Virus record (IMG/VR): IMGVR_UViG_3300031658_000002
Span: 1-64,000 of that record
DNA: 64,000 nucleotides
Direction: 5' to 3' (one strand)
Origin: a virus
Shown here: positions 393 to 47,536 of the stretch, one piece after another
Numbering within the stretch: the first letter of the stretch is position 1
Layout: every line of letters begins with the position of its first letter
The notes under the pieces: model-generated
The model's input: only the letters and a program-made list of their open reading frames with translations
What the model was told of the DNA's origin: nothing
Databases searched by the model: none
Translations under genes and position numbers: made by a program

Positions 393-1403
393 TTAAAGGT
401 CCAAAGACCTCATATTGTGATAATCTCTGCCTATCTTAAGCTTAGTAGGATAAACCATTAGTTTCTTTATCTCCTTAAGAAGTTCCTTCCCATCATCCGA
501 ACTAACGTCAAATACAAATGCATCGTATACATAGAGAACCATCTTACTAAATTTGTTTTCTAGCATAGCTAAAATGTTTTTTAGATTTTCAGAATTCTTT
601 TCTGTTTCGAAAGCTTGTATAAAGTAGTTGAATAATTTTTGAGGATTCATATCCTTAAAGTTTCTTTTATAAAACCTACGCTTTAAAATTGGTGTTTCTA
701 TATAACCTTTACTATTATAAATATCCCATAACTTAAAAATATATTCGTTAGTCTTTTTAAAATAATCGATGTGTAAAAACTCTTTTGGTATACCTCCATA
801 AAGTATTTGGAAGCTTAATTTTTTAGAGTCATTGTATTGTTCATCTGTAAGATTATCGGTATCAAAGTAAAGTGCACCTAGATATCTATGAAAACTACCT
901 TCTGGCTGTTTTACTCCAATCAATTCTGCTATAAGTCTCAAATGATACGCATCATAATCAAACTCTGCAAGTATTCCGCCTGGATATCTGCTTATATATT
1001 TTGATCTTGTGCCATCTTCTTTATTCAATGCTGCATAATTTGTGCCTTTGTTAGAATTCGAAGGCCTTCCTGTCGAAGTAAAAAGATTATATCTAGTGTA
1101 TTCAGGGCCCGCTTCAGTCCAAAAGCCGCTTTGTTCAATTTTTCTAAAAGTACTAACAACATTATCATTATATGATTGAATCATGGTTTCAGGTACATCA
1201 GGAATCGCATGCGAGATAGCGTCTAGATGATCGATTTCTTCTCTGATCTTGCTTTCAGGTATTATATCATATATGTTATATCTGTTGCTGTATAACCTTT
1301 TATAGAATGTATTTATTGGAGGATCTAAAGTCGATTCGTCTATAGATTTGTTGTTGTGCAGGTAGTGTTTTATCTGCAGTTTATTTCGAAGTTCAGTTAA
1401 CAT
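393..1403 (-). CDS. polA: Minimal family A DNA polymerase (polymerase domain only)
   Basis: TSTGRPS, motif A EFDYDAYHLRL, motif B SKKLSFQILYGG, FNYFIQAFE, motif C LYVYDAFVFD; no recognisable exonuclease domain. Confidence 0.8.
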   Translation of the reverse strand: MLTELRNKLQIKHYLHNNKSIDESTLDPPINTFYKRLYSNRYNIYDIIPESKIREEIDHLDAISHAIPDVPETMIQSYNDNVVSTFRKIEQSGFWTEAGPEYTRYNLFTSTGRPSNSNKGTNYAALNKEDGTRSKYISRYPGGILAEFDYDAYHLRLIAELIGVKQPEGSFHRYLGALYFDTDNLTDEQYNDSKKLSFQILYGGIPKEFLHIDYFKKTNEYIFKLWDIYNSKGYIETPILKRRFYKRNFKDMNPQKLFNYFIQAFETEKNSENLKNILAMLENKFSKMVLYVYDAFVFDVSSDDGKELLKEIKKLMVYPTKLKIGRDYHNMRSLDL

Positions 1404-1404
1404 G

Positions 1405-1439
1405 TATCTAATATAACAAAATTATATGATATATGAAAA
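1405..1439 (-). promoter_or_regulatory. Putative early/middle promoter TTTTCATAT-N10-TTTGTTATATTAGATA abutting the polA ATG
   Basis: Same bipartite motif at identical spacing upstream of bS21 (22165-22199); core also before primase (47521-47536); TATATTAG resembles the Bacteroidota -7 element TAnnTTTG. Confidence 0.6.
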
Positions 1440-18226: not shown

Positions 18227-18889
18227 TTACATACCCATTAGCATTTCAAACACATCGTTTATTGCTACGTGACGATGGTTATCTTCTAATACTCTTTTGT
18301 ATACATACTGAGAATCGTTTATCTTTGACAGATCAACTATTGCAGAATAGTTTTTGTCTTTCAAATCAATCTGCTGGTTATCACCACAGAATATCATTGT
18401 TGATCCTTTTCCTAATCTACCTAGCGCCATTCTAAATTGTGATCTAGTTAGATTTTGAAACTCATCTATAATTACTACACTGTTTTCAAATGTTCTACCT
18501 CTGAAATGTGCTAAAGAAACAAGCTCTATAGATTCTTCCTTCTCCATCTTATCTAGAATCTCAGGTTTGTTGTAGATCTTTCTCATATTAGATCTGATGG
18601 GTACCAACCAGGGCTCCATCTTTTCTTTTTCTGATCCTGGTAAAAACCCGTTGTCTTCAGTAGAGACAGTCGGTCTTGTAATTACTATCTTGTTTGTCAT
18701 CCTTTTGAAAAACATATCTAGTGCTACCTGACATGCTAGCAGCGTCTTTCCACTACCTGCTTTACCTACTATGAAATTGTAAGGGTGATGCAACATTGCT
18801 TGCTTTGCTGCTTTCTGCTCTTCTGATAATGTTATTGAAAACTTTATGTTGCCTTTGGGAACAGATTTTTCTATGTTTTGCTTTGCCAT
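18227..18889 (-). CDS. phoH: PhoH-like ATPase
   Basis: GKAGSGKT, ITRP, GFLPGSEKEKMEPW, RGRTF, DEFQN, RLGK, GDNQQID. Confidence 0.95.
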   Translation of the reverse strand: MAKQNIEKSVPKGNIKFSITLSEEQKAAKQAMLHHPYNFIVGKAGSGKTLLACQVALDMFFKRMTNKIVITRPTVSTEDNGFLPGSEKEKMEPWLVPIRSNMRKIYNKPEILDKMEKEESIELVSLAHFRGRTFENSVVIIDEFQNLTRSQFRMALGRLGKGSTMIFCGDNQQIDLKDKNYSAIVDLSKINDSQYVYKRVLEDNHRHVAINDVFEMLMGM

Positions 18890-18994: not shown

Positions 18995-20623
18995 TTATGA
19001 AGCGAATGAAGCAGTTACACCACCAAATCTTGAAGTCCAAGTAGAATCGTTAACTATCAACTTAGCGTAGAAGTCGTTTCTTACAACTTTCTTAGCGTAT
19101 CTAGTCATCACACCTTTTCTTGGAGTAAAGTTTGTTGGATCGTAAACAAGTGGAGTCATAATCAATGGAATGTATGGAGCAAATACTGCACCAGTTTCTA
19201 AGAATTGAGTCCCTCTAAATCCTGTTAAGATAGTGTTACCTGTCCAATATGGATTTTTGTAAATTGTAAATCTGTTCGATAAAGAACCGATTGCAGTTAC
19301 ACCCATTGCAAAGCTTTCAGCAGTACCATCAGTATTAGCAGCATATCCAGCGATAGACTCTAAGTAAGTAGCGATCTGTGGAGAACATACAGCAAAGTTA
19401 GCTCCTCCTCTCATCGTTGATTGGTGGATAGTGTTTGATAAAACTTGCATTGAAATACCCATTTGAGCAAAAGCATCGCCGTAAGATTCACCAGCAGCAG
19501 GAGCAGCAGCTACAAATGTTTGTTCGAATGCAGCAGCGTTGTTAAGCATTGCTAAAATTTCCAAGTCAATTTCCATTGAAATGTATTCAGATAACATTGA
19601 AGTTAATTCAGCTTCAGCATCAATTGAATGATAAGCATTAAGATCTTGCGCAAATTCCGGTGACCATTTAACTTTTAACTTTCTAGTCTTAGCAACTAAA
19701 GCCTCTTGAGTTAATTGAACATCGATTTCTGGAATTTCTAAGTCATCAGACAAAGTACTTGATACAATTTCCGGTCCTACAGTATCTTCAAAGTCACCTC
19801 TTAATAATGCTTTTTCAGTGTTTTGGTAATAGTACAATTTATACTTGTTATCATCACCAGAAACAGCAATAGAAGAACCATCTTTTATAGAGTGGAACGT
19901 TGCAGCTGTTGTTGCAGGTACAAATGCTGAACAAGTAAATACTTCAGCAGTTGCAAGTGCTGCAGCATTGTCACCGCTGTCACCAGCAGTAAATCTAGCA
20001 GCACCAGCAGAAGCAGACATAACATAGAAAGCAGATGCTAATGACCAGTCAGCGTCAACACCTAATGTTGGGCCGTTGTCTAGTCCGTTAAGAATTACTG
20101 AAGCAGAAGATTCAGCTTTAAGTAATAAAACACCTTTTTTAGATAATGAATATCCAGCAGAACGTCCACCCATATCTGTGTCAGAACTTCCGTATAATCC
20201 ATCGTTTAAGTTTGGTGCAGTTTTTCCAGAACCACCGTACAAAGAATTACCATCTTCATGGCGTCCTTTAGCTGTTCCGTATTTAAAATCTAACCAGAAA
20301 ACTAGACCTGATGGTAAGTTCATTGGCTGTACACTGACGAATTCCTTTGCAGAAATTTCAGCGAAGATTCTTCTAACTAATGGTAAAGCTACCCCATTCC
20401 AGTTTTCTCTATTAGTACCTGAATCGATACTGTTAGATTCTGAAATAAGTTGTTTAGCTTGGTTTTCTAAAAGAATTGCAGTGTTGTGCATTGTATACTC
20501 ATCACTGATTCCTTCTAAAAGACCTGTCTTTTCCCACTTAGTTACAAGACCTTTTGTTTCGTTTCTCTGTGCATTAAATGATGCCTGAGAAGCTTGTAAT
20601 AAATCATTAATTTGATTTGACAT
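18995..20623 (-). CDS. Major capsid protein (T4 gp23-like)
   Basis: KWEKTGLLEG, LLENQA, VSVQPMNLPSGLVF, KTRKLK.KWSPEFAQDLNAYHSIDAEAEL, APYIPL, FTPRKGVMTRYA. Confidence 0.97.
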   Translation of the reverse strand: MSNQINDLLQASQASFNAQRNETKGLVTKWEKTGLLEGISDEYTMHNTAILLENQAKQLISESNSIDSGTNRENWNGVALPLVRRIFAEISAKEFVSVQPMNLPSGLVFWLDFKYGTAKGRHEDGNSLYGGSGKTAPNLNDGLYGSSDTDMGGRSAGYSLSKKGVLLLKAESSASVILNGLDNGPTLGVDADWSLASAFYVMSASAGAARFTAGDSGDNAAALATAEVFTCSAFVPATTAATFHSIKDGSSIAVSGDDNKYKLYYYQNTEKALLRGDFEDTVGPEIVSSTLSDDLEIPEIDVQLTQEALVAKTRKLKVKWSPEFAQDLNAYHSIDAEAELTSMLSEYISMEIDLEILAMLNNAAAFEQTFVAAAPAAGESYGDAFAQMGISMQVLSNTIHQSTMRGGANFAVCSPQIATYLESIAGYAANTDGTAESFAMGVTAIGSLSNRFTIYKNPYWTGNTILTGFRGTQFLETGAVFAPYIPLIMTPLVYDPTNFTPRKGVMTRYAKKVVRNDFYAKLIVNDSTWTSRFGGVTASFAS

Positions 20624-20649: not shown

Positions 20650-21576
20650 TTATTTTAATCCTGCTAACCTTTGCATTCTTGTTGCAAAAGTATTTGATTC
20701 AACAATAACATCTTTCGATGGTTTTGTAGAACCGATTGTTTTTGATGCGAAGCTTTCAGTAACGCGTTTCTTTGGAGTATATCCTGAAATTGATTCAGCT
20801 AAAGTAGAATAAACTAACTTAACTTCTCTTACAGAATTTGCTCTATCGAACGTTTCGATAACTTTCATCTTTTGTGATTCTGATAAACTGTTAGATCTGA
20901 ATAGTTTGTTAGAATAAAGTAATTTAGAATTTAATAAGTTTACTTCGTTAATTTTAGATTTTAAAAATCTAATAACTTTGTAAGCTTCTTCTAATTCTTC
21001 TTCATTTTCAACAACTTCTTCTTCTTCTTCAAGTTCATCTTCTTCTCTTAATGCGGATATAATCTCATCGAGATCCATTTCCTCGTCTTCACCTTCTTCG
21101 TCCATAGTCTCAGCGTCATCACCTTCTTCAATTTCCATTTCCTCGTCAGCTTCAGCAACAGTTGGGTCTTCACCTTCTGCTTCTTCTTCTTCTAATTCTT
21201 TGATAATTGATTCTAGTTCTAGATCGTCTTCGTCCATGTCGTCCATCTCATCGATTTCCTCAGCCTCATCGTATGATTCTTCAGCAGGCAAGTCTTCACC
21301 TGTTTCTTCTGTTTCATCATCCGCAGAGCCAGTGTCTGCCGAGTCAGCAGTAGTGTCAGCAATAGCAACTTCTTCGTCCTCCATAGAGGTATCAGTAGTT
21401 TCTAAATCGTCTTCTTCTTCTAATTCGTCATCCATTTCTTCGGCAATCTTATTTGATAGCATAGATTGTAATTTCGGGGTGAATGCTTCTTCGAGAGCTA
21501 ATCTCGCATTTGCAATGGCAGTTGAACGAACTGCTTTTGCATCGGCAATTGCCTCTTTTAATAAGTCTTTTGACAT
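20650..21576 (-). CDS. Prohead core scaffolding protein (gp22-like)
   Basis: Highly acidic centre, LNSKLLYSNKLF, ends RMQRLAGL; immediately upstream of the capsid gene; AGGAG spacing favours ATG 21576. Confidence 0.85.
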   Translation of the reverse strand: MSKDLLKEAIADAKAVRSTAIANARLALEEAFTPKLQSMLSNKIAEEMDDELEEEDDLETTDTSMEDEEVAIADTTADSADTGSADDETEETGEDLPAEESYDEAEEIDEMDDMDEDDLELESIIKELEEEEAEGEDPTVAEADEEMEIEEGDDAETMDEEGEDEEMDLDEIISALREEDELEEEEEVVENEEELEEAYKVIRFLKSKINEVNLLNSKLLYSNKLFRSNSLSESQKMKVIETFDRANSVREVKLVYSTLAESISGYTPKKRVTESFASKTIGSTKPSKDVIVESNTFATRMQRLAGLK

Positions 21577-21698
21577 TATCATTCTCCTTTAATTTGTTTG
21601 TTCTGGAAATAAGGTTATTAGAAACCTTAATAGGGTAGTTATAGTTTTGTGCATTGTATTATATAGAGATAATACTTTTTGTATACACCTAAATCCTA

Positions 21699-21706
21699 TA
21701 TAAATA
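21699..21706 (-). promoter_or_regulatory. Putative late promoter motif TATTTATA for the scaffold-capsid operon
   Basis: About 120 nt upstream of the scaffold start, after the bS21 terminator. Confidence 0.6.
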
Positions 21707-21728
21707 TACATGACAATCATTAAAGACT

Positions 21729-21753
21729 AAAAAAGAGCCTATAAAAAGCTCTT
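21729..21753 (-). terminator. Probable terminator after bS21
   Basis: AAGAGC...GCTCTT stem plus T-tract on the minus strand; weak stem. Confidence 0.5.
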
Positions 21754-21782
21754 CTTTATTAAAAATATTTGTTTATTGTATG

Positions 21783-22136
21783 TTATCTAGCTTGGCCGTC
21801 AAAGATACCTACCCAGACGTAACCTTTACCATATCGCTTACTCATCTTATCTCTGTACTGTTCAGTCCTAACTGCCTCTTCTTTCTGAATCCTTCTCTTT
21901 TCGCTAGGCTTAATGTACTCCCTCTTGTCTCTGTACTTTGTGATCTTCTCAGTATCTTTCAATTGTCTTTTTAGATACTTCAAAGCTCGCTCTAATGAAT
22001 ATGAACTTGAATCTGGTATCTTGACTGCTTCAGGGTTTCCTTCTACGTAGAAGTCGTGTCTACCAAAATGCTTCTTTTTAAAGGGCTTTTTTTGATAGTC
22101 TTTCTTTTGATAATCTTTCTTGTAATTTTTTTGCAT
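21783..22136 (-). CDS. rpsU: Phage-encoded 30S ribosomal protein bS21 with N- and C-terminal extensions
   Basis: Core VKIP...SLERALKYLKRQLK...YRDKREYIKPSEKRR...A fits the bS21 pattern (ERALKxxKR, (Y/F)xKPSxxRR); location in the portal-protease-capsid block matches described bS21 phages. Confidence 0.85.
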   Translation of the reverse strand: MQKNYKKDYQKKDYQKKPFKKKHFGRHDFYVEGNPEAVKIPDSSSYSLERALKYLKRQLKDTEKITKYRDKREYIKPSEKRRIQKEEAVRTEQYRDKMSKRYGKGYVWVGIFDGQAR

Positions 22137-22164
22137 TGTTATGTTTTATGTTAAACTTGATTTA

Positions 22165-22199
22165 TATCTAATATAACAAAAAAAATCGACATATGAAAA
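22165..22199 (-). promoter_or_regulatory. Putative early/middle promoter for bS21 (TTTTCATAT-N10-TTTGTTATATTAGATA)
   Basis: Both elements identical in sequence and spacing to those upstream of polA. Confidence 0.6.
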
Positions 22200-22209
22200 C
22201 ATATGCCGG
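22178..22209 (-). terminator. Terminator upstream of bS21, overlapping its promoter
   Basis: CGGCATATG-TTTT-CATATGTCG stem (one G-U pair) followed by T8. Confidence 0.7.
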
Positions 22210-22240
22210 CCTTTTTAATATCTGTTATTTTGCTATCTTT

Positions 22241-22909
22241 TTATTTAAATGTTTTACGCATCCATAAAAGAATATAATGTGTTAATTCTTTTGCAGCAGG
22301 CTTGACATCTTCCTTGTCTGTCATAGGACCGCGTTTCCAATCTAACCATTGCATTTCAATTGCCGACAGGTGTTTATCTATAGCTTGATCATCCATAGAT
22401 TCTATGTATTCTTCGTTTATCTTACCTTCGTACATTAAATCAAACATAGTATCTTGAAGTTTAGAATCTATAAATCTACCACCTGCTTTTTCAATAGCTC
22501 TTCTTGCTTTCAATGCGTTTTTCTTAAGAACAATGAAATATCCTTTTCGTGGGCCACCCATCTTTTTTGTATATTGTGATCCTTGAGATTTTGAACCTAC
22601 CGGTCTTGCATTACCTCTTGGATCTATCACTACAAATTCTCTAGATTCAGTTAATGTACTTTCGTTCATTACTATATACTTCGCAAGTCCGTTCGTATCT
22701 TTATCTTTTATACTAAAGCCACTTAGCACTTCCCAATCAGCTACCATATCTATAAAGTCAGCCAGACCATTGACATCTTTCTTGTCAACAAGTTTGTAAA
22801 ATTCTTGCTGGTCCTGTCTGTCGTTTGGCATCCATTTTTCTATTTTGTCATGCGCTAAACTAAAGTTTGGGCCTTCATTTAAAATATCTTTGAATTTAAT
22901 ATTTGCCAT
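22241..22909 (-). CDS. Hypothetical protein, probable protease-processed internal head protein
   Basis: MANIKFKDILNE leader; further MNE/LTE/INE sites; located in the head cluster. Confidence 0.6.
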   Translation of the reverse strand: MANIKFKDILNEGPNFSLAHDKIEKWMPNDRQDQQEFYKLVDKKDVNGLADFIDMVADWEVLSGFSIKDKDTNGLAKYIVMNESTLTESREFVVIDPRGNARPVGSKSQGSQYTKKMGGPRKGYFIVLKKNALKARRAIEKAGGRFIDSKLQDTMFDLMYEGKINEEYIESMDDQAIDKHLSAIEMQWLDWKRGPMTDKEDVKPAAKELTHYILLWMRKTFK

Positions 22910-25027: not shown

Positions 25028-25660
25028 TTATTTACTCCTGTTTGGTAGTGTGCATTTGCAAGTTAGATCGCAAAGCATTTCGTTAATTATATTGTTTACC
25101 TTGTCGTATTTATTTATATAAATATCATTGACAGATTCCTTAAGCGGTGCCATGAAAGCTCCATGTGTCGATGGGTTAGAGACAAAATCCCAGCATACTA
25201 ATTCAAAGTCAGATTGTACTTCGAGGGTTCCGTCCTCTGAAAGCTGCTTAACTGAACCTAAGCCTCTAGAACTGATCCCTAATTTCACACCAGCTTTAAG
25301 CAGTTCTTTTAGTATGTTACCAGAAGGTGTACCTAGTACCTCAACTGTGCCAACTAAATCATCACCTTTCCACCATATCTTTTTTATATTGTGAGAAACG
25401 TTTTGCAAATTAACTACAGATGATTCTGGATGGTCTAATTCTCCAAGTGCTCTGTTTTCTGCAATTTGTATCTTTGAATATTTGTTAGCTTCACGCATTA
25501 AGATTTCCTTAGGATATACTCTTCCGTTTTGGTTTTTCGCACCGGCTCTTTGTAGCACGCCACTTACAATAACCTTTCCGTCGTTGCTTTCCTCAGACTC
25601 TTTTATCATTTGAGGTGTTATTTCAAACGATGTATAATCTATTAGTACTTCTTTTGACAT
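25028..25660 (-). CDS. Prohead protease (T4 gp21-like)
   Basis: NQNGRVYP, ALGELDHP, VSH, TPSG, GISSRGLGS, DFVSNPS. Confidence 0.95.
   Translation of the reverse strand: MSKEVLIDYTSFEITPQMIKESEESNDGKVIVSGVLQRAGAKNQNGRVYPKEILMREANKYSKIQIAENRALGELDHPESSVVNLQNVSHNIKKIWWKGDDLVGTVEVLGTPSGNILKELLKAGVKLGISSRGLGSVKQLSEDGTLEVQSDFELVCWDFVSNPSTHGAFMAPLKESVNDIYINKYDKVNNIINEMLCDLTCKCTLPNRSK
25117..25124 (-). promoter_or_regulatory. TATTTATA motif embedded in the 3' end of the protease gene
   Basis: Full GATATTTATATA context (encodes DIYI), about 90 nt before the 25027 start. Confidence 0.5.
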
Positions 25661-27007: not shown

Positions 27008-28813
27008 TTATATGTCGTCTTCCATTATGTTGCTTTCGTTTAAAAGATCAGATTTATATTTACTTTTTTCAGCAAACAAACCTCTTATCTTCCGTGATTC
27101 AAATCTTCTGTTTGATTTATTGTTCTTCAGTTTTGTATCACGCTTTCTTTCTTCTCTACCAATAGTATCTCTACCTCTTGCAGAGTCTTGAGATCCATAC
27201 TTTGTACTTTCTTCTGGTCTACCCTGACCTGGCTCGTTGGGCTCATCGTTTCCGAACATAGAAAGATTGTCACCTCCATCATCTTCTGCGTCTACAGTTG
27301 CTAACGTGTGAGGAGTACCAAGTGCTTCACCAGATTCTTGAGGATCGTTACCTTCCATTTCTATCTGAGATTTTCTAAACTTCTGTTTTATATCTTCTAT
27401 TACGTTATGCTTTTCTTCTTTAACTTCTTCTTCGTTCATGTTAAATACATTTTTGTATATCCAATCTTCAGATACCATCTGACCGTCTTTAATAGTTGAT
27501 GCTAAGTCTAACTTGCTTGACCATAACTCTAGCTTTTCTTGCTCTGCTATTGATGAAGGGTTTGTTAGTTTTAATTCAAACTCTACCATCTCTTCGTTTG
27601 AAAATCCTTGAGAGTATAAATGTACCATTGCAATTTTTGTAAGCTCTGATAAAAATATCCTCTGTATTCTTTCTATTGTTCTTGCAAACCTGACATCCTG
27701 AGCTGCAAGGGTTGCTTTTCCTTCTACACCTTCTTCATAGCCTAAGAAAGCCTTAGGTACTTTAAGTGCTGCAAACATTCTTGATTTTAAATAGTCCACA
27801 TCATCTATGCTATTGTTTTCCATTCCTGATAAAGTATCTATCTCAGTACCAGATTGACCGCCTCTTACAGGAAGGTATACATCTTCAAGCATATTCGACA
27901 TATTAAATTTAAGATTATATTGGCCAGTCTTCTCATCTATATAAGGAGTCTTTTTCATCTGGTTAACAACTCTCTGCATATATGCGTCTACCTCGTTTGG
28001 TGGGATGTTACCTATATCTATTTTATATACTCGTTTTTCAGGTGCTCTCATGATTCTGTGAATTAACATTGCATCTTCCATAAGAGTTAATTGTTTCCAA
28101 GTCTTTCTAGCCGGTTCGATCATAGCTTTACCATAAGGTAGAAAGTTCATATCGTTAAGCATTCTAAAGTGAGCTATTTCGTAGTTTTCATAGTGCGACT
28201 GCATACCTTGTCTTGAAGCTCCTTGCTGACCGGCCATTGTAGGATCATGAGTAAACTTAACCATATCAGGATTATTTGGATCAGTACCTTCTTCTCTAAA
28301 CATCTCGTATGAAGACAGAGGAACTGCATTTGTTATCCCTACTTTTTCTGTTATATCTAACTTCAAATAGAAGTCACCATACTTACACATGTTTCTTACC
28401 CACGGCCAAGCGTTGAATTCTATATTAAGTACATCATAAAACAGATTGTTTAACACCTTCTGCACTTTTTCATTATCTGTATTTATTTCGAGTACATTAC
28501 CGAATTCGTTTTTAAGAGTTGACTCATCTGAGTATATGTCTAGAGCAGATGAGATTATAGAATCTTCGTCCATAATCTCATAGTCAGAATACAGCTGGAG
28601 TCTAAGTGTATGAAAATTAGCCTGTTGGTTGTAACCGTAACTGTCTGTTTGATATATTCTGTTGTATCTGTCTACTAATCTGTTTGTTGCTAGTTTTGGA
28701 TTTGCTTGCACTTTGCTTAAGTCTGCAACTTTTAATCCATTGTCAGTCCTTCTTATAATTGTTCCTGTTGAAAACAATGTCTGTAATCTTCCAAAAAATG
28801 TTTTTTCTGCCAT
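27008..28813 (-). CDS. Portal protein (T4 gp20-like)
   Basis: WKQLTLMEDAMLIHRIMRAPEKRVYKIDIGNIPP, MLEDVYLPVRG, TEIDTL.G, ALKVPK, DVRFARTIERIQ. Confidence 0.96.
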   Translation of the reverse strand: MAEKTFFGRLQTLFSTGTIIRRTDNGLKVADLSKVQANPKLATNRLVDRYNRIYQTDSYGYNQQANFHTLRLQLYSDYEIMDEDSIISSALDIYSDESTLKNEFGNVLEINTDNEKVQKVLNNLFYDVLNIEFNAWPWVRNMCKYGDFYLKLDITEKVGITNAVPLSSYEMFREEGTDPNNPDMVKFTHDPTMAGQQGASRQGMQSHYENYEIAHFRMLNDMNFLPYGKAMIEPARKTWKQLTLMEDAMLIHRIMRAPEKRVYKIDIGNIPPNEVDAYMQRVVNQMKKTPYIDEKTGQYNLKFNMSNMLEDVYLPVRGGQSGTEIDTLSGMENNSIDDVDYLKSRMFAALKVPKAFLGYEEGVEGKATLAAQDVRFARTIERIQRIFLSELTKIAMVHLYSQGFSNEEMVEFELKLTNPSSIAEQEKLELWSSKLDLASTIKDGQMVSEDWIYKNVFNMNEEEVKEEKHNVIEDIKQKFRKSQIEMEGNDPQESGEALGTPHTLATVDAEDDGGDNLSMFGNDEPNEPGQGRPEESTKYGSQDSARGRDTIGREERKRDTKLKNNKSNRRFESRKIRGLFAEKSKYKSDLLNESNIMEDDI

Positions 28814-28832: not shown

Positions 28833-30410
28833 TTATAATAACCAAGTTAAATCTTCGTCATCATTTTTAATTTTCATATTCCAAGGGTTAGTTCCAGGAA
28901 AACTATTTCCTGTATACGCACCTCTTGTGTTGACTATGTTGTTTATTGCGTTCTTGTTCATATTCAATCCTTCAGTAGCCAATCTGACTGCATTATCTCT
29001 AACAAATAGCGCGATAGCAAGTGCCATTGTTAGATCATCATTATATCCTCGCTGAGCTTCAGCTCTATGGCCATTCCAGATGAAAACAAATAACTCATCT
29101 ATCAGTCTTTTAGATTTTATAGTGCACGCCTTTTCTCTAAAATAAATATCTAACTTCGATATCAAAAGAGGCCTTGTACGGGTTGAAGTAGTAAATCCAG
29201 GGGTCATATTTTCACGGTTCTTTAAGTCATATCCTTTACTTAACTGAGTAGTGGCATCGTGGACACCTTCGTGTTTGTACGTGTAATAAAGATTTCTGTA
29301 CCCTCTATCTATAGCTGGCTGTAGTGCAGCCCAACCTATGTTTGCATTTTCTACAACCAACAAAGCTTCGTTGTATTCTGTAGCTATATTTACTAGTAGA
29401 TTTCCGAACTCTTTCGTCCCTATCTGATTTCTATATTCTGCTACCTGTTCCATCTTTTCTATATCTATTACATGAAAAGTAGAGTAGTCACTACCGTCAC
29501 CTCTGGCAACATCGGCAACAACCATATATGATCTATTATAATCTGCATAGTTCCATATCCACAGCTCGTCTTCTACACCTCTCTTTTCGATTGGCTCTAC
29601 AACAAGATTGTCCATATACCAAGTAAGAAGTTCTGCAGAAACAACTGAATTACCAGAAGTAATAAAGTCACAGTCACATTCCTGTGCTGCCATTTTAGGT
29701 CCAAGTAATTCGTCTTGCAAATCTCTCCACTCTTGATCTCTATCAGGATGCTCTGTCCAGTGTAATTTTATAGGATTAAACTGACCTTCTCCTCTCTCAG
29801 CCTGAGTCCATATCTTGTGGAATAAGTTTCCTGTACCATTTGGTGTTGAAAGTAAGATTGCAGAACCACCAGTTGCTAATGTTTGCTGTGCTGAAGTCCA
29901 TATCTCTTCAACCTTATCTATAAAGGCAGCCTCATCAATAACTAACAGGGAAAGTGCTTCAGATCTTGCAGCATCAGGAGCAGATGATACTGCTTTTATC
30001 TGTGATCCGTTTTTAAGTCTAAGTGAAAGTCTGTTATCTTCTTCAGATCCAACTCTTAGCCATGAAGGTAGCAAGTCGTGCATTACCCTAACCTTAGTAA
30101 TAAGATTCTTTGCAGTGTCTTGTTTTATAGCAATAACTAATACATTAAAGTCTTCTCTGAAAACCATGTTCCATACAGAAAATCCAGCTGTCAAGGTTGA
30201 TATACCCATCTGTCTGGATTTTAATATTACATTAAATCTGTGATCTTTGAAGTCTACTAAAGAATCTTCCTGGAATTTGAATAAATCGAACTTTATCTTA
30301 CCTCGCTGAGGGTGCTGGATAAAGCAGTACTTCTTCATAAAGTACACAGGGTCTTGTGAGCACTTGATATACTCATCAACTAAAGCTTGTTTTATTGTTT
30401 TATTTGCCAT
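28833..30410 (-). CDS. terL: Terminase large subunit (gp17-like)
   Basis: Walker A KSRQMGIST, Walker B LLVIDEAAF, STPNG, nuclease ADVARGDGSDYS, VVENAN, DDLTMALA. Confidence 0.96.
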   Translation of the reverse strand: MANKTIKQALVDEYIKCSQDPVYFMKKYCFIQHPQRGKIKFDLFKFQEDSLVDFKDHRFNVILKSRQMGISTLTAGFSVWNMVFREDFNVLVIAIKQDTAKNLITKVRVMHDLLPSWLRVGSEEDNRLSLRLKNGSQIKAVSSAPDAARSEALSLLVIDEAAFIDKVEEIWTSAQQTLATGGSAILLSTPNGTGNLFHKIWTQAERGEGQFNPIKLHWTEHPDRDQEWRDLQDELLGPKMAAQECDCDFITSGNSVVSAELLTWYMDNLVVEPIEKRGVEDELWIWNYADYNRSYMVVADVARGDGSDYSTFHVIDIEKMEQVAEYRNQIGTKEFGNLLVNIATEYNEALLVVENANIGWAALQPAIDRGYRNLYYTYKHEGVHDATTQLSKGYDLKNRENMTPGFTTSTRTRPLLISKLDIYFREKACTIKSKRLIDELFVFIWNGHRAEAQRGYNDDLTMALAIALFVRDNAVRLATEGLNMNKNAINNIVNTRGAYTGNSFPGTNPWNMKIKNDDEDLTWLL

Positions 30411-43471: not shown

Positions 43472-46400
43472 CTACACAATAACCTTACTCAATCCTTTAG
43501 TTATGTTGATCTCTACTAGACCATCAACCATATCTTTCATGATATCTATGTGAGATATTATCATTACAAAGTCAAATTCTGCTTTAAGATAATCAAACAA
43601 CATAGACATAGAGTTTATATTCTCTGAATCTAAATTACCAAAGCCTTCGTCAACTGCCAAGAAATTAGGACGTGGTAAGTTAGATATTTTTATAAGCGCT
43701 ACCCGTATTGCTAAAGAACTTATAAACTTCTCCATACCCGAAGTAAGTTCTAAAGGCCATCTGTCTTCTTCTCCATATTTTATATAACTTAATATATTTT
43801 TGCCATCTACATCGAACTCTATTTCGAAGTCAACTATTTGAGATAAAGTATTATTTATCTCCTCTTCAAGATATGGCAACGTCTCAGCTATTATCTCGTA
43901 AGGTATACCGTCACGTTTAATTGCATCTAAATAAAACTCATATGACTTCAGCTTTAACTCCAACTCGTGTGCATCGCTTATAGTACTTGTTATATTAGAT
44001 ATGTTTTGAGTAGTTATGGAGACGTTACTGTATGCTTTCTGTATATCGTTTTGTACTTCGTCCAATTCTACTTTTATATTTGCTTTTTCTATTTCTAGAT
44101 TGTCTATAGATGCGTTTATCCGTTCATTAGCCTTGATAGTTTCCTTGTTTCTATGATACTTCTCTATATCCTTATCTATACCCTTTAGTTCAGTTTTCTT
44201 GGCGCGTAGGTCAGACTTTCTCTGCTCCGATTTGATTATAATTTCCGATTCATATTGGCTAATAGTCAACTTTTCACTTTCTAGTTCTCTATATATATTT
44301 ATTAGATTTTCAACCTCAGTCTTCTCCAGTAACACACTATCTGATATTGATCTGTCGCTTAAAAGCTTGTTAACAATAATCTTGTCTTCTTTAAGTAAGT
44401 CTTTTGCTTGCATTGCAGATTTTACAAATTCATTGTCGCAGCAATAATTACAGGCAGGGTCGTACTCGTGCACATCAAGTTTTGATATCAAGTCTAGCTT
44501 GTTTCTTACGCTTACCTTTTTAACTTCTATTTCTCTTACCAATCTAGAGTTATTATCTTTTTCTATATCAAGTACTGCCTTTTTAGCTACAAGATCTTTT
44601 ACATCTATCTTTGACATTTTTAGATTTATCTCAGTTGACTTTTTCTTATTAACCTTTGCGTACTCTTTGTATTTGTTTAACTTGTAGTTATATGCACTTA
44701 TGGTTTCCTCGGCAAAACTTTTCACTCTTTCTAACTTTTCAATATTATCTGATGTAGATATATTTTTAAGCTCCTTGACTTTGGTGTGTATACTTTTCTC
44801 TTTATCTGAATATCGTTTCTGTATAGTATTCTTGTCTCCGTCTAACTCTGAGTATACTTTGCTGTATCTTTTCTGATTCTCTTCTTCGTCTATTAGCTGT
44901 TGAGAGTAGTCTGTCTTTCCAAAATTTCTAAGAAGTATCTGCACCTCCTTTATCTCCTCATTTGCTAGATTATAAAGCTCTTCAAATACAGTTATATCTA
45001 AGAATTGAGAAAGAAGATCTTTCTTCTCCGTCTGTGACTGATCAATAAATCCAGTACTATTGTTTTGTACTGACATTGATGTTAACACAAAGTCATTATA
45101 TAAACCTAGATAACCTCTTATATTTTTATCAGTCTGAGTTCTCTGCTCTCCATTTAAAGATATTATCGTATCGTCTTCACCTATCATCCAGAAATTAACG
45201 TCAACTCTAACGTGGCCCTTTTTTTCTTTAACACCTTTTCTTTCTATGAAATATTGTATACCGTCTATCTCAAAGTTAAGCTTACATGAAAAATTCTTTT
45301 TCTTATTGTTCAGTACATCAGATGCGGATTTAGTTCTAGAGCACTTATGGAAAGCGCAAAACATTAGTGCATCAAGTATTGCAGACTTCCCTGCGTGGTT
45401 GGGAGCAAATACGCCTACGACATCTCTAAGTTTGCTAAAGTCTATTACATTGTCTTCACCATAACTGAACATGTTAGAAAATTCAAACGTTTTAGGCAGC
45501 CACCTAACACCTCTAGATATTTCTATTGCTGAAAGATGTTTATTAAGTTCAGTGTTTATATTTTTTATTCTGCGTATAGTCTCAGAGTCAGCTGAATGAT
45601 TTGTTCCTATGTATTCTTCAAGCAATTCGTTTTGATATTGTACATCTCTTATATCTCTTGTTAACGAGCGTGTTGTTTTATTCTGAGCATTGAGTTTGTC
45701 GTTTTTTATTATAACTATGTCTGTAGTTTTACATTTGCATTTTATTTCTTTTATTATATCTTTCAGCTGAGCCCTTGTTGTGTTGTTAGTACGTATTCTT
45801 ACTCTAGGATATTTTGGTATGCTGTCTATATTTGGCAGTATGCCTTCGCTGACGTTTATAGTGTAAAACCCATGCACATTTTCAAAGTTCCTGAATTCAG
45901 CTTTTCTTTTCTCTACATCCCATATAGCACAACCGTGGTTATCAAACGATTCTCCAAAATTCTGCTGTATTAAAGACCCTACCTGGAGTATTGTTTCATC
46001 TGTATCGTAAAACTGTCTCTTGTGTATATCTCCAAGCATAGTCATATCATAGCCATCAAACATAGATGATTTTAAACTATCACTTTCAACTTTATATCCT
46101 GCATCAGTGTATGACATATCAAGTGCTCCGTGGAAAAGAGCAACTTTAGTCTCACCTTCAAAAGAATTAGATTTTATAAAAGTCTTCGGGTCGTCGAAAA
46201 TACTAAACACTGCAAAGTGAGTGTCGGCTATTAAATGCACTGCAGAGTCTTTAAGATAGTGAAGCTGTGGGTGGTTTAAAGATTCAATCATCGGAGTAAG
46301 AGAGTCAAGCCTAGACGAGTTATTTAGATTTGCATCGTGATTACCAGTTATAACTATCGTATGCCGTCTGTCTGCTAGATTTTTTAAAAACTCGCACGTT

Positions 46401-46618
46401 AGCTTTATAAGCTCAGGTGATATATCAGTCTTACTATGTACGACGTCGCCTCCTACATATACTATTGAGTTTTTAGGAAGATCGTCAACTTCTTTATACA
46501 GCTGTCTAAATACTTTTCTATATTCCTTATGTCTCTGATAATTTCTTATGTGTATATCAGCAACATGCAATACTTTTTCTAATTTGTTAAATCCTACATC
46601 AATCTTGTTAAAGTCCAA
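43472..46618 (-). CDS. Fused Mre11/SbcD nuclease and Rad50/SbcC ATPase (gp47-gp46-like)
   Basis: HVADIH, GGD, GNHD, FHG, LGDIH phosphoesterase motifs; Walker A APNHAGKS; coiled coil with CNYC hook; TSGME signature; LAVDEGFG; IISH. Confidence 0.92.
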   Translation of the reverse strand: MDFNKIDVGFNKLEKVLHVADIHIRNYQRHKEYRKVFRQLYKEVDDLPKNSIVYVGGDVVHSKTDISPELIKLTCEFLKNLADRRHTIVITGNHDANLNNSSRLDSLTPMIESLNHPQLHYLKDSAVHLIADTHFAVFSIFDDPKTFIKSNSFEGETKVALFHGALDMSYTDAGYKVESDSLKSSMFDGYDMTMLGDIHKRQFYDTDETILQVGSLIQQNFGESFDNHGCAIWDVEKRKAEFRNFENVHGFYTINVSEGILPNIDSIPKYPRVRIRTNNTTRAQLKDIIKEIKCKCKTTDIVIIKNDKLNAQNKTTRSLTRDIRDVQYQNELLEEYIGTNHSADSETIRRIKNINTELNKHLSAIEISRGVRWLPKTFEFSNMFSYGEDNVIDFSKLRDVVGVFAPNHAGKSAILDALMFCAFHKCSRTKSASDVLNNKKKNFSCKLNFEIDGIQYFIERKGVKEKKGHVRVDVNFWMIGEDDTIISLNGEQRTQTDKNIRGYLGLYNDFVLTSMSVQNNSTGFIDQSQTEKKDLLSQFLDITVFEELYNLANEEIKEVQILLRNFGKTDYSQQLIDEEENQKRYSKVYSELDGDKNTIQKRYSDKEKSIHTKVKELKNISTSDNIEKLERVKSFAEETISAYNYKLNKYKEYAKVNKKKSTEINLKMSKIDVKDLVAKKAVLDIEKDNNSRLVREIEVKKVSVRNKLDLISKLDVHEYDPACNYCCDNEFVKSAMQAKDLLKEDKIIVNKLLSDRSISDSVLLEKTEVENLINIYRELESEKLTISQYESEIIIKSEQRKSDLRAKKTELKGIDKDIEKYHRNKETIKANERINASIDNLEIEKANIKVELDEVQNDIQKAYSNVSITTQNISNITSTISDAHELELKLKSYEFYLDAIKRDGIPYEIIAETLPYLEEEINNTLSQIVDFEIEFDVDGKNILSYIKYGEEDRWPLELTSGMEKFISSLAIRVALIKISNLPRPNFLAVDEGFGNLDSENINSMSMLFDYLKAEFDFVMIISHIDIMKDMVDGLVEINITKGLSKVIV

Positions 46619-47519
46619 ATTTCATCTCCAGTAATTTTGCAAAATCTACAGGCTTTGATTTACTAATCAGCTCTGTTATCTTTTTATGTCCTAATGTGCT
46701 AGGATCTTCGTCATCTTGCATTTCAATTATTCTAACGTCTATATTTTCTGATTGCAAGTATTCGCATAGTTTTATAGATTCACTCTTTGCATCGCTATCT
46801 AAAACTATGTTAACTCGCTTAACTTTGTTCTGTCTTATTTTCGCTCTTAACGACTTAGGGAGGAACTTTCCAAATATTGGTATGGAGTTCTCGCCAACTG
46901 CTATTGCATCAAAAACACCTTCGCATATATTTATATCTTCATTCCAGTTTATTAGTAACTCAAACCCTATAACATCTTTAGATGTCTTAGGATTCTTGTG
47001 CTTGAAGTCACTTTCGTAATAAGCTCTACCTACAAAGTAATTTAATATACCAAAGCTATCGTAGCTAGGTATTACTACCATTCCTTTATATTGGCCTGAA
47101 TCACAATAACCTATATTATATCTAAGCACATCTGTCTTTGTAATTCCTCTTGATTTTAAATACCTTGCAGCGTTTCTGAATTCAGGGTTGTTTTTATCGC
47201 CATCTACAATCGGCTTAAACTCTAAAGGAAGTGATACATGTTCTACTTCTTTTTCACGGTCAACTTTACGTTTAACACCCGTAAGCATGTGTAACTCTTT
47301 AACTCTGCCGTGTGATCCCACCTGCCTAAATATTCTTTCAGCACCTACTCCTTTAACTCCACATACCCAGCAGTGCCATTTTTGAGTTATAATGTTTATA
47401 ACAAGTTTCTTTTTGTGATGATTGCAGTATGGACATGTGAAAGTTGCTTCATTTCCACTAGTCATTGATTTCCCTAATACATTTTCAAAAAGATTGAGTA
47501 AGCGTCTACTTTTATTCAT
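46608..47519 (-). CDS. DNA primase (Zn finger plus TOPRIM)
   Basis: CPYC...WHCWVC, YLKSRGI, YFVGR, CEGVFDAI, LDSDA, EDPS. Confidence 0.9.
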   Translation of the reverse strand: MNKSRRLLNLFENVLGKSMTSGNEATFTCPYCNHHKKKLVINIITQKWHCWVCGVKGVGAERIFRQVGSHGRVKELHMLTGVKRKVDREKEVEHVSLPLEFKPIVDGDKNNPEFRNAARYLKSRGITKTDVLRYNIGYCDSGQYKGMVVIPSYDSFGILNYFVGRAYYESDFKHKNPKTSKDVIGFELLINWNEDINICEGVFDAIAVGENSIPIFGKFLPKSLRAKIRQNKVKRVNIVLDSDAKSESIKLCEYLQSENIDVRIIEMQDDEDPSTLGHKKITELISKSKPVDFAKLLEMKFGL

Positions 47520-47520
47520 G

Positions 47521-47536
47521 TATATAATATAACAAA
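47521..47536 (-). promoter_or_regulatory. Putative early/middle promoter TTTGTTATATTATATA abutting the primase ATG
   Basis: Same motif-ATAC-ATG geometry as at polA. Confidence 0.55.

Follow-up and report, generated by a model that had tools for sequence, protein, structure and literature searches.

To our knowledge, phages encode bS21 far more often than any other ribosomal protein. In ribosomes of Flavobacterium johnsoniae, Tyr54 of bS21 stacks on A1534 where the 3′ tail of the 16S rRNA turns to the bS18/bS6 pocket, and this residue, a signature of the phylum, helps to sequester the anti-Shine-Dalgarno (anti-SD) sequence (Jha et al., 2021, PMC7797042). Its replacement by Ala (Y54A) raises the expression of a green fluorescent protein (GFP) reporter with a strong Shine-Dalgarno (SD) sequence by 70% in vivo and the rpsU′-gfp product 3-fold in vitro, with little effect on SD-less templates, while deletion of residues 43-64 raises the output from an SD-led template 5-fold and lowers that from SD-less mRNA 2-fold (McNutt et al., 2023, PMC9976891). 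Described here is a phage bS21 gene in bases 1-64,000 (the window) of the 78,904-bp IMG/VR virus record IMGVR_UViG_3300031658_000002, which is about 45% complete according to CheckV and comes from a marine T4-like phage that has Flavobacterium phage immuto and phage Mel-JY01 among its relatives. The encoded protein shares its fold and its KPS-helix region with F. johnsoniae bS21, but the effects in F. johnsoniae were obtained with engineered host mutants (Y54A and the C-terminal deletion) or with bS21-free ribosomes, whereas the phage protein is a natural variant with Arg in place of the Tyr and with extensions at both its N- and C-termini. The regulatory logic is also opposite, as host rpsU has an exceptionally strong SD and is made best by bS21-free ribosomes, while the phage gene has no SD.

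Phages with a bS21 gene, and the idea that they use it to hijack ribosomes, are already known. The bS21-encoding myophages assigned to Bacteroidetes hosts by Chen et al. (2022, ISME Commun 2:31, PMC9723584) have, like the present phage, their bS21 gene in a head block near TerL, portal, prohead protease and major capsid protein (MCP) and a predicted host among the Bacteroidota, and the role proposed for the protein is likewise its substitution into host ribosomes in favor of phage mRNAs. They differ in that bS21 and the structural genes lie on opposite strands in their clades, whereas here both are on the same strand and bS21 is insulated by terminators, and in that an aromatic residue occupies position 54 in 61/61 of their proteins, where Arg is found here. 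Chen et al. came to the conclusion that the anti-SD stays blocked by the phage protein (PMC9723584). When their text was searched by term, SD sequences came up only in the introduction and in connection with Tyr54, and no analysis of the SDs carried by phage genes was found. Among cultured phages, immuto (vB_FspM_immuto, NC_055915) and Mel-JY01 (PP395634) have a head module of the same T4-like type. Immuto differs in having no bS21, and none of the 55 genes of its region has an SD. Mel-JY01 has an annotated RpsU of 75 amino acids in the same slot (22183-22410 of the sequence examined) with Lys at the Tyr54 position, but this bS21 has no extensions and no promoter or terminator of its own, and a weak AGGA stands upstream of it. 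Searches of the literature yielded no paper on a natural family of phage bS21 that lacks the sequestering Tyr, bears extensions and is encoded as an insulated cassette, and none that links bS21 type in three ways to SD sites on virion genes. What is added here is a graded, orthologue-controlled comparison of bS21 type and SD use.

The open reading frame (ORF) in question is a genuine bS21. Its residues 47-91 match PF01165 (Ribosomal_S21) with 35 bits against a cut-off of 27 (36.5 bits in a six-frame search), and its score of 27.8 with TIGR00030 is slightly below the cut-off of 28.95. A Lys/Tyr-rich basic N-terminal extension of ∼36 residues precedes a bS21 core of ∼64 residues and a C-terminal extension of 17 residues containing Trp108, and both the basic N-terminal and the Trp-bearing C-terminal extension, with the Trp invariant, are common to all 23 family members (8 from a protein collection and 15 from IMG/VR loci). 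Of the solved structures, F. johnsoniae bS21 matches best (PDB 7JIL chain z; phmmer, residues 40-98 against 4-62 of the chain, ungapped), and in this alignment Tyr54 falls opposite Arg90, as it had been placed in a previous reading of the DNA made without database searches (the sequence-only reading). In a second chain, 9i5v_9, the residue that faces Arg90 in the same register is likewise Tyr. At this position the family has Arg in 20/23 and Ala in 3/23 sequences and an aromatic residue in none. The register is fixed because it is anchored by the KPS turn and by a family-invariant Ala at KPS+12. A shift of four residues, which would make Tyr94, one helical turn further on, the true equivalent of Tyr54, was ruled out: R82, Q84, A88 and D96 match R46, Q48, A52 and D60 of the F. 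johnsoniae protein, and related phage proteins of the same lineage that do have Phe or Tyr place it at KPS+14. A Tyr or Trp at the Tyr94 position is limited to the nearer subfamily.

The conserved bS21 core is present, with an N-terminal helix that bears the (L/I)ExALKxxKR motif, the KPS turn and a long C-terminal helix. In the AlphaFold model, helices span residues 45-61, 63-70 and 77-103, with Arg90 inside the continuous last helix (pLDDT, the predicted local distance difference test score, 90-94), while the tails of this very basic protein are disordered. Two traits of the Bacteroidia-type, anti-SD-sequestering bS21 are thus absent, the aromatic residue at position 54 and the short length (∼64 residues) with an end soon after the helix. 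A Foldseek search of the model, an extended helical ribosomal protein modeled alone, gave nothing significant against the PDB (best E 3.1). A scan of 185,579 species genomes with the family alignment found no relative of the family, hence no prophage or host clue, and no phage copy of bS18 or bS6, the other proteins of the pocket, was found in five contigs.

The comparison of loci shows that virion genes with SDs accompany a phage bS21 as such and not the loss of the aromatic residue. Genes were listed simply from ORFs, and SD use was scored as an SD core (GGAG, GAGG or AGGA at −17 to −4). The 24 IMG/VR loci with the bS21 family described above (R/A type, for Arg or Ala at position 54) all have SD-rich surroundings, with an SD core on 40-92% of the genes within 10 kb. 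A profile search of 1.84 billion representatives revealed that long phage-like bS21 proteins have radiated widely. Some of them have Tyr or Phe at position 54 (Y/F type), and for these 97 IMG/VR loci were fetched with single proteins, the Y/F alignment being too divergent to serve as a seed. With proteases 58-69% identical, these loci are of the same T4-like lineage, and in them bS21 follows directly on the preceding gene without a terminator or promoter of its own. When pooled and dereplicated, the R/A type comprises 17 distinct bS21 with 275 neighbor genes, of which 62% have an SD (background 9%), and the Y/F type comprises 53 distinct bS21 with 670 neighbor genes, of which 44% have an SD (background 7%). 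The GGAG lies 6-9 nucleotides (nt) from the ATG in both classes alike. The comparison without bS21 is provided by 80 immuto-like loci, where the gene was found in none and an SD core stands before 3.3% of 738 distinct neighbor genes, in keeping with the immuto region (0/55 genes) and the unrelated Flavobacterium phage 11b (2/57). The sequence-only reading had made the loss of Tyr the key to SD-led head genes; given the Phe/Tyr sister clade, such a loss is not needed.

The same picture is obtained when orthologous genes are compared across the R/A, Y/F and bS21-less groups, in that order. An SD core precedes the protease gene in 100, 82 and 6% of cases, the MCP gene in 100, 67 and 0%, the scaffold gene in 72, 91 and 0%, the portal gene in 80, 0 and 0%, and the PhoH gene in 92, 11 and 0%, and a full GGAG is present on 100, 17 and 0% of the MCP orthologues. 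TerL is SD-less in all three groups (0, 3 and 4%), even among SD-led neighbors. On an MCP tree the three groups form separate clades with support of 100 (immuto-like), 100 (Y/F) and 81 (R/A), the branching order among them not being settled, and LR756508 and RM378 fall outside all three. Arg or Ala at position 54 and the Trp-bearing C-terminal extension therefore accompany wider and stronger SD use, and residue 54 and the extension may set its degree, although this graded effect is weak since it rests on one clade contrast. The bS21 gene itself has an SD in 0/17 R/A and 0/53 Y/F cases and is thus SD-less in 70/70 distinct cases, as would be expected if it were made by ribosomes that had not yet been changed.

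Our favored explanation, which we regard as evenly balanced and each functional step of which we infer, is that phage bS21 enters the host 30S subunit and shifts the choice of start sites to SD-led phage mRNAs. Unmodified, SD-ignoring host ribosomes would translate the SD-less bS21 mRNA, and the phage protein would then occupy the bS21 site on host 30S subunits. Without the Tyr that stacks on A1534, and with a different C-terminus, it would hold the 3′ tail of the 16S rRNA less well, the anti-SD would become available, and ribosomes would favor SD-led virion mRNAs over the SD-less ones of the host. With no SD in its leader, bS21 would also limit its own synthesis, a feedback that would mirror the autoregulation of the SD-led host rpsU. 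Release of the anti-SD is the probable means of the start-site shift. The fuller form of this proposal, in which bS21 is a reprogramming factor that turns SD-blind Bacteroidia ribosomes into SD-reading ones and acts as both late switch and host shut-off, with its strength set by residue 54 and the C-terminal extension and with negative feedback, is more tentative and falls somewhat short of an even chance. A precedent for the swapping of bS21 variants to give specialized ribosomes with altered mRNA preference is provided by the bS21 paralogues of Francisella tularensis (PMC9578407; PMC12262407); these are chromosomal, gammaproteobacterial and not phage-encoded, and they are not known to be linked to anti-SD unmasking.

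The comparison of clades bears also on a more general kind of ribosome take-over or maintenance, in which phage bS21 replaces or tops up host bS21 and the SDs of late genes have another cause. Ribosomes might in this way be kept replete, phage mRNAs might be favored by features other than SDs, or a host defence that stalls phage translation might be countered. Models of this type have been published (Mizuno et al., 2019, PMC6375957; Chen et al., 2022, PMC9723584), the bS21 of phage HTVC008M enters Escherichia coli ribosomes (PMC6375957), and the long basic N-terminal and Trp-bearing C-terminal extensions of the present protein suggest additional contacts. Such a role would also suit the Y/F-type protein, which retains the aromatic residue yet sits among SD-led genes. 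It leaves unexplained, however, why SDs occur only in the clades that carry bS21, with 3% in the 80 bS21-less sister loci, and why the bS21 gene is so uniformly SD-less, and we therefore consider it rather unlikely, if the most credible of the alternatives.

The start-site shift proposed above has a counterpart in the distribution of SDs along this genome. Among the 58 genes with starts at or below 66,860, which encode virion, lysis and some replication proteins, 50% have an SD core and the mean energy of the anti-SD duplex is −4.8 kcal/mol, and the neighbors of bS21 bear SDs of the AGGAG type. The 22 genes with starts above 66,860 (ligase, nucleotidase, GIY-YIG endonuclease, secreted proteins and small ORFs) have an SD core in 5% of cases, a mean duplex energy of −1.1 kcal/mol and leaders (66.9-78.9 kb) that are 56% A, with the background from random sites and other same-strand ATGs at 7-9% and −2.1 kcal/mol. 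The split between an SD-rich late block and an SD-free upstream block is real, and both the SD-led neighbors of bS21 and the genome-wide difference in anti-SD pairing agree with what the sequence-only reading had anticipated. Judging from its gene content, the upstream block is presumably early. Within it, an extended SD-like run, GGAGGAAGGAGGT, with a duplex energy of −10.7 kcal/mol, lies at the 3′ edge of a transfer-messenger RNA (tmRNA) region, 14 nt before the ATG of gene 68358-69209. A DUF805b RNA motif (RF02914) in an AT-rich intergenic region scores 35.0 bits, just below its gathering score of 35.6.

The bS21 gene of this phage is a self-contained cassette consisting of a terminator, its own promoter, an SD-less A-rich leader, the ORF and a second terminator. 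That it forms an insulated transcription unit had been proposed from the two flanking hairpins, and both are present and more stable than shuffled sequence. The downstream hairpin had been called the weaker one, but by energy it is not, with −14.1 kcal/mol (z −2.95) vs. a minimum free energy of −12.3 kcal/mol (z −3.9) for the upstream hairpin. The U-tract of the latter reaches ∼22178 and overlaps the beginning of the promoter-like motif TTTGTTATATTAGATA. Three copies of the 12-mer core of this motif are present in the window, where 0.05 are expected, and the copies before the DNA_pol_A fragment and the Toprim/primase-like gene end 1 nt before the ATG, so that these two mRNAs would be leaderless or nearly so. 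A further copy of the 16-mer with one mismatch, CTTGTTATATTAGATA, is on the opposite strand inside another gene and may act as an antisense promoter or have arisen by chance. The leader of bS21 is indeed A-rich and without an SD, as first described, with an anti-SD duplex energy of +1.0 kcal/mol. Directly past the bS21 terminator is the late-type motif ATATTTATA, found 19 times in the window against 2.9 expected and 18 times on the coding strand; one copy adjoins the TerL ATG.

The claim that bS21 shares its promoter with polA rather than with the late genes stands in part. The 16-mer at the polA fragment is identical, but TTGATTATATT and TATTTATA are both present in the promoters that recur three times in the SD-less block at 72-75 kb, and each of the ∼100-nt elements concerned carries TTG-N-TATATT as well as TATTTATA and precedes an A-rich SD-less leader. 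The presence of TATTTATA inside promoters of the SD-less block means that the two promoter classes are not cleanly separate, and a reading in which promoter class simply equals timing was rejected on this ground. Most relatives retain the cassette, with an upstream hairpin, TTG-N1-2-TATATT, an SD-less leader and a downstream hairpin, and the motif is located 33-37 nt before the ATG in 12/18 distinct relatives. Both hairpins are kept while the letters of their stems differ, which argues that the hairpins themselves are under selection. In marine metatranscriptome contigs (four runs, relatives with 88-99% identity) the scaffold gene is heavily covered and bS21 hardly at all, but such contigs give neither levels nor ends and an uncovered part proves nothing, so nothing is concluded from them about the level or timing of bS21 RNA. 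Their ends fall at 21692-21696, shortly after the ATATTTATA copy that precedes the scaffold gene, a weak hint of a late promoter.

The insulation of the cassette also bears on whether the protein works off the ribosome or as a component of the virion, for example as an RNA-binding protein that is packaged alongside the DNA and brought into the cell at infection, for which encapsidation has been raised as a possibility (Chen et al., 2022, PMC9723584). The gene lies inside the head module and the protein is very basic with disordered tails, but terminators and a different promoter-like element separate it from the head operons, and the core motifs that contact 16S rRNA (LERALK, KPS and the helix) are conserved in the bS21 family. 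We consider such a role highly improbable.

The entry of phage bS21 into an SD-ignoring ribosome presupposes a host of the appropriate type, and a Bacteroidota host, as the sequence-only reading had assumed, is likely. One gene of the upstream block contains a type B sorting domain of the type IX secretion system (T9SS), with 36.9 bits against 35 for TIGR04131 and 42 against 27 for PF13585. The nearest ESM Atlas clusters of this protein are viral, and the cellular ones are all from Bacteroidota. It is part of a run of small secreted-looking proteins that would be phage cargo for the T9SS of the host. The A-rich SD-free leaders of the upstream block resemble those of Flavobacterium phages immuto and 11b, and the closest cultured phages are Mel-JY01 (TerL 59%, MCP 47%) and immuto (54%, 46%). 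What does not fit so readily is that Mel-JY01 is recorded on Microcystis, that the scan of species genomes yielded no relative of the bS21 family, and that the phage has a permuted tmRNA of the two-piece type (RF04321, 57.8 vs. 47 bits; tag peptide GEHVEMAMAA by ARAGORN). Permuted tmRNAs are known from Alphaproteobacteria and cyanobacteria rather than from Bacteroidota. The tmRNA is the second translation-related gene of this phage besides bS21.

The record of Mel-JY01 and the permuted tmRNA would be explained by an AT-rich, SD-competent host such as a cyanobacterium or alphaproteobacterium, in which SDs are ordinary and a basic residue 54 is simply the non-Bacteroidia state. Mel-JY01, which by TerL is the closest of the cultured relatives, carries Lys as residue 54 and an SD on about half of its head-region genes, and E. 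coli bS21, we presume, has Lys there as well. Four related R-type contigs yielded no T9SS domain; more widely, long related contigs from both bS21 classes gave no hit to the T9SS families TIGR04131, PF13585 and PF18962, but the TIGR04131 control was also blank and the result carries little weight. An SD-competent host is difficult to reconcile with the T9SS type B and PKD_6/DUF6150 proteins of the present contig, whose cellular look-alikes are all Bacteroidota, and it gives no reason for the avoidance of SDs in the 22 upstream genes with their A-rich leaders. Moreover, Tyr occupies this position in both of the solved chains that match the bS21 core best, that of F. johnsoniae and the second one. 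A host of this kind is thus improbable.

Several points weigh against the proposal that phage bS21 shifts start-site choice by freeing the anti-SD. The Y/F sister clade also has SD-led head genes, so that loss of the Tyr is not required, and in the R/A protein itself Tyr94 or Trp108 could replace the stacking contact. The association of bS21 with SDs rests on few clade-level contrasts and not on many independent events, and a partial counter-example exists in the 484-kb uncultured phage LR756508.1, whose 79-residue bS21, with Met at position 54, is encoded next to the MCP gene, while an SD core stands before only 14% of the genes nearby. That bS21 is translated early, as had been assumed, is unsupported as stated, since the resemblance of promoters is all that suggests early expression and the promoter classes overlap. 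The record on Microcystis of Mel-JY01, which also has a bS21 and SD-led genes, and the permuted tmRNA are to be counted here as well.

The remaining features of the locus are those of a conserved head block (TerL, portal, protease and MCP) with the bS21 slot inside it, and the minus strand holds nearly all long ORFs, bS21 among them (Table 1). The scaffold ORF opens with ATGATAATG, and AAAGGAGA stops 1 nt short of its first ATG. Translation probably starts at the second ATG (21576), where the SD spacing is normal. No match to an INPHARED phage was obtained by megablast of 8 kb or by tblastn of bS21.

Table 1. Location of the bS21 cassette, the head genes and other elements in the virus record; features beyond 64,000 lie outside the window.
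Feature	Position	Strand	Description
Phage bS21 gene	21783-22136	-	117 amino acids; Pfam PF01165 match
Arg90 codon	21867-21869	-	aligned to F. johnsoniae Tyr54; position verified by translation
Tyr94 codon	21855-21857	-	one helical turn past Arg90; position verified by translation
Upstream intrinsic terminator hairpin	22187-22208	-	9 bp, 4-nt loop, then AUUUUUUUU
Promoter-like 16-mer TTTGTTATATTAGATA (TTG-N-TATATT)	22165-22180	-	ahead of bS21
bS21 leader TAAATCAAGTTTAACATAAAACATAACA	22137-22164	-	28 nt, A-rich, without SD
Downstream terminator hairpin	21728-21758	-	13 bp, with T-run
Late-type promoter motif ATATTTATA	21699-21707	-	directly past bS21 terminator, ahead of scaffold and capsid genes
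Identical 16-mer copy	1405-1420	-	ends 1 nt before DNA_pol_A fragment ATG
Third 16-mer copy, one mismatch	47521-47536	-	ends 1 nt before Toprim/primase-like ATG
One-mismatch 16-mer CTTGTTATATTAGATA	43986-44001	+	inside SbcC/Metallophos-like gene
DNA_pol_A fragment gene	393-1403	-	336 amino acids
PhoH gene	18227-18889	-	
MCP gene	18995-20623	-	behind TAAGGAG
Acidic scaffold-like gene	20650-21582	-	behind AAAGGAG
Prohead protease gene	25028-25660	-	
Portal gene	27008-28813	-	
TerL gene	28833-30410	-	
Toprim/primase-like gene	46608-47519	-	
SD-like run GGAGGAAGGAGGT	∼69210-69240	-	3′ edge of tmRNA region
Permuted tmRNA	69284-69493	-	RF04321; beyond window
DUF805b RNA motif	70041-70080	-	RF02914
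∼100-nt intergenic element (...TTAACCCGCTAAAAGTTTTCATATCTCGG-N7-TTGATTATATTTATAGTATAAATA...), three copies	72510-72720, 74304-74414, 74865-74966	-	beyond window
Small secreted-looking protein run	74967-76984	-	DUF6150, PKD_6 + T9SS type B (CHU_C), second PKD_6
Gene with T9SS type B sorting domain	75260-75793	-	TIGR04131, PF13585

These data tie phage bS21 to a measurable property, namely the SDs of virion genes in a lineage whose ribosomes hide the anti-SD, and they provide a three-way natural comparison between phages with no bS21 and no SDs, phages with an aromatic residue at position 54 and some SDs, and phages with an extended Arg/Ala-54 protein and SDs on most late genes. The published effect of Y54A runs in the predicted direction, and reporter, in vitro translation and cryo-EM systems exist for F. 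johnsoniae. If the proposal is true, the phage protein would represent a new switch in phage gene expression that acts through ribosomal start-site selection and a natural case of specialized ribosomes, in which virion mRNAs would be marked by their SD and the SD-less mRNAs of the host would at once be starved.

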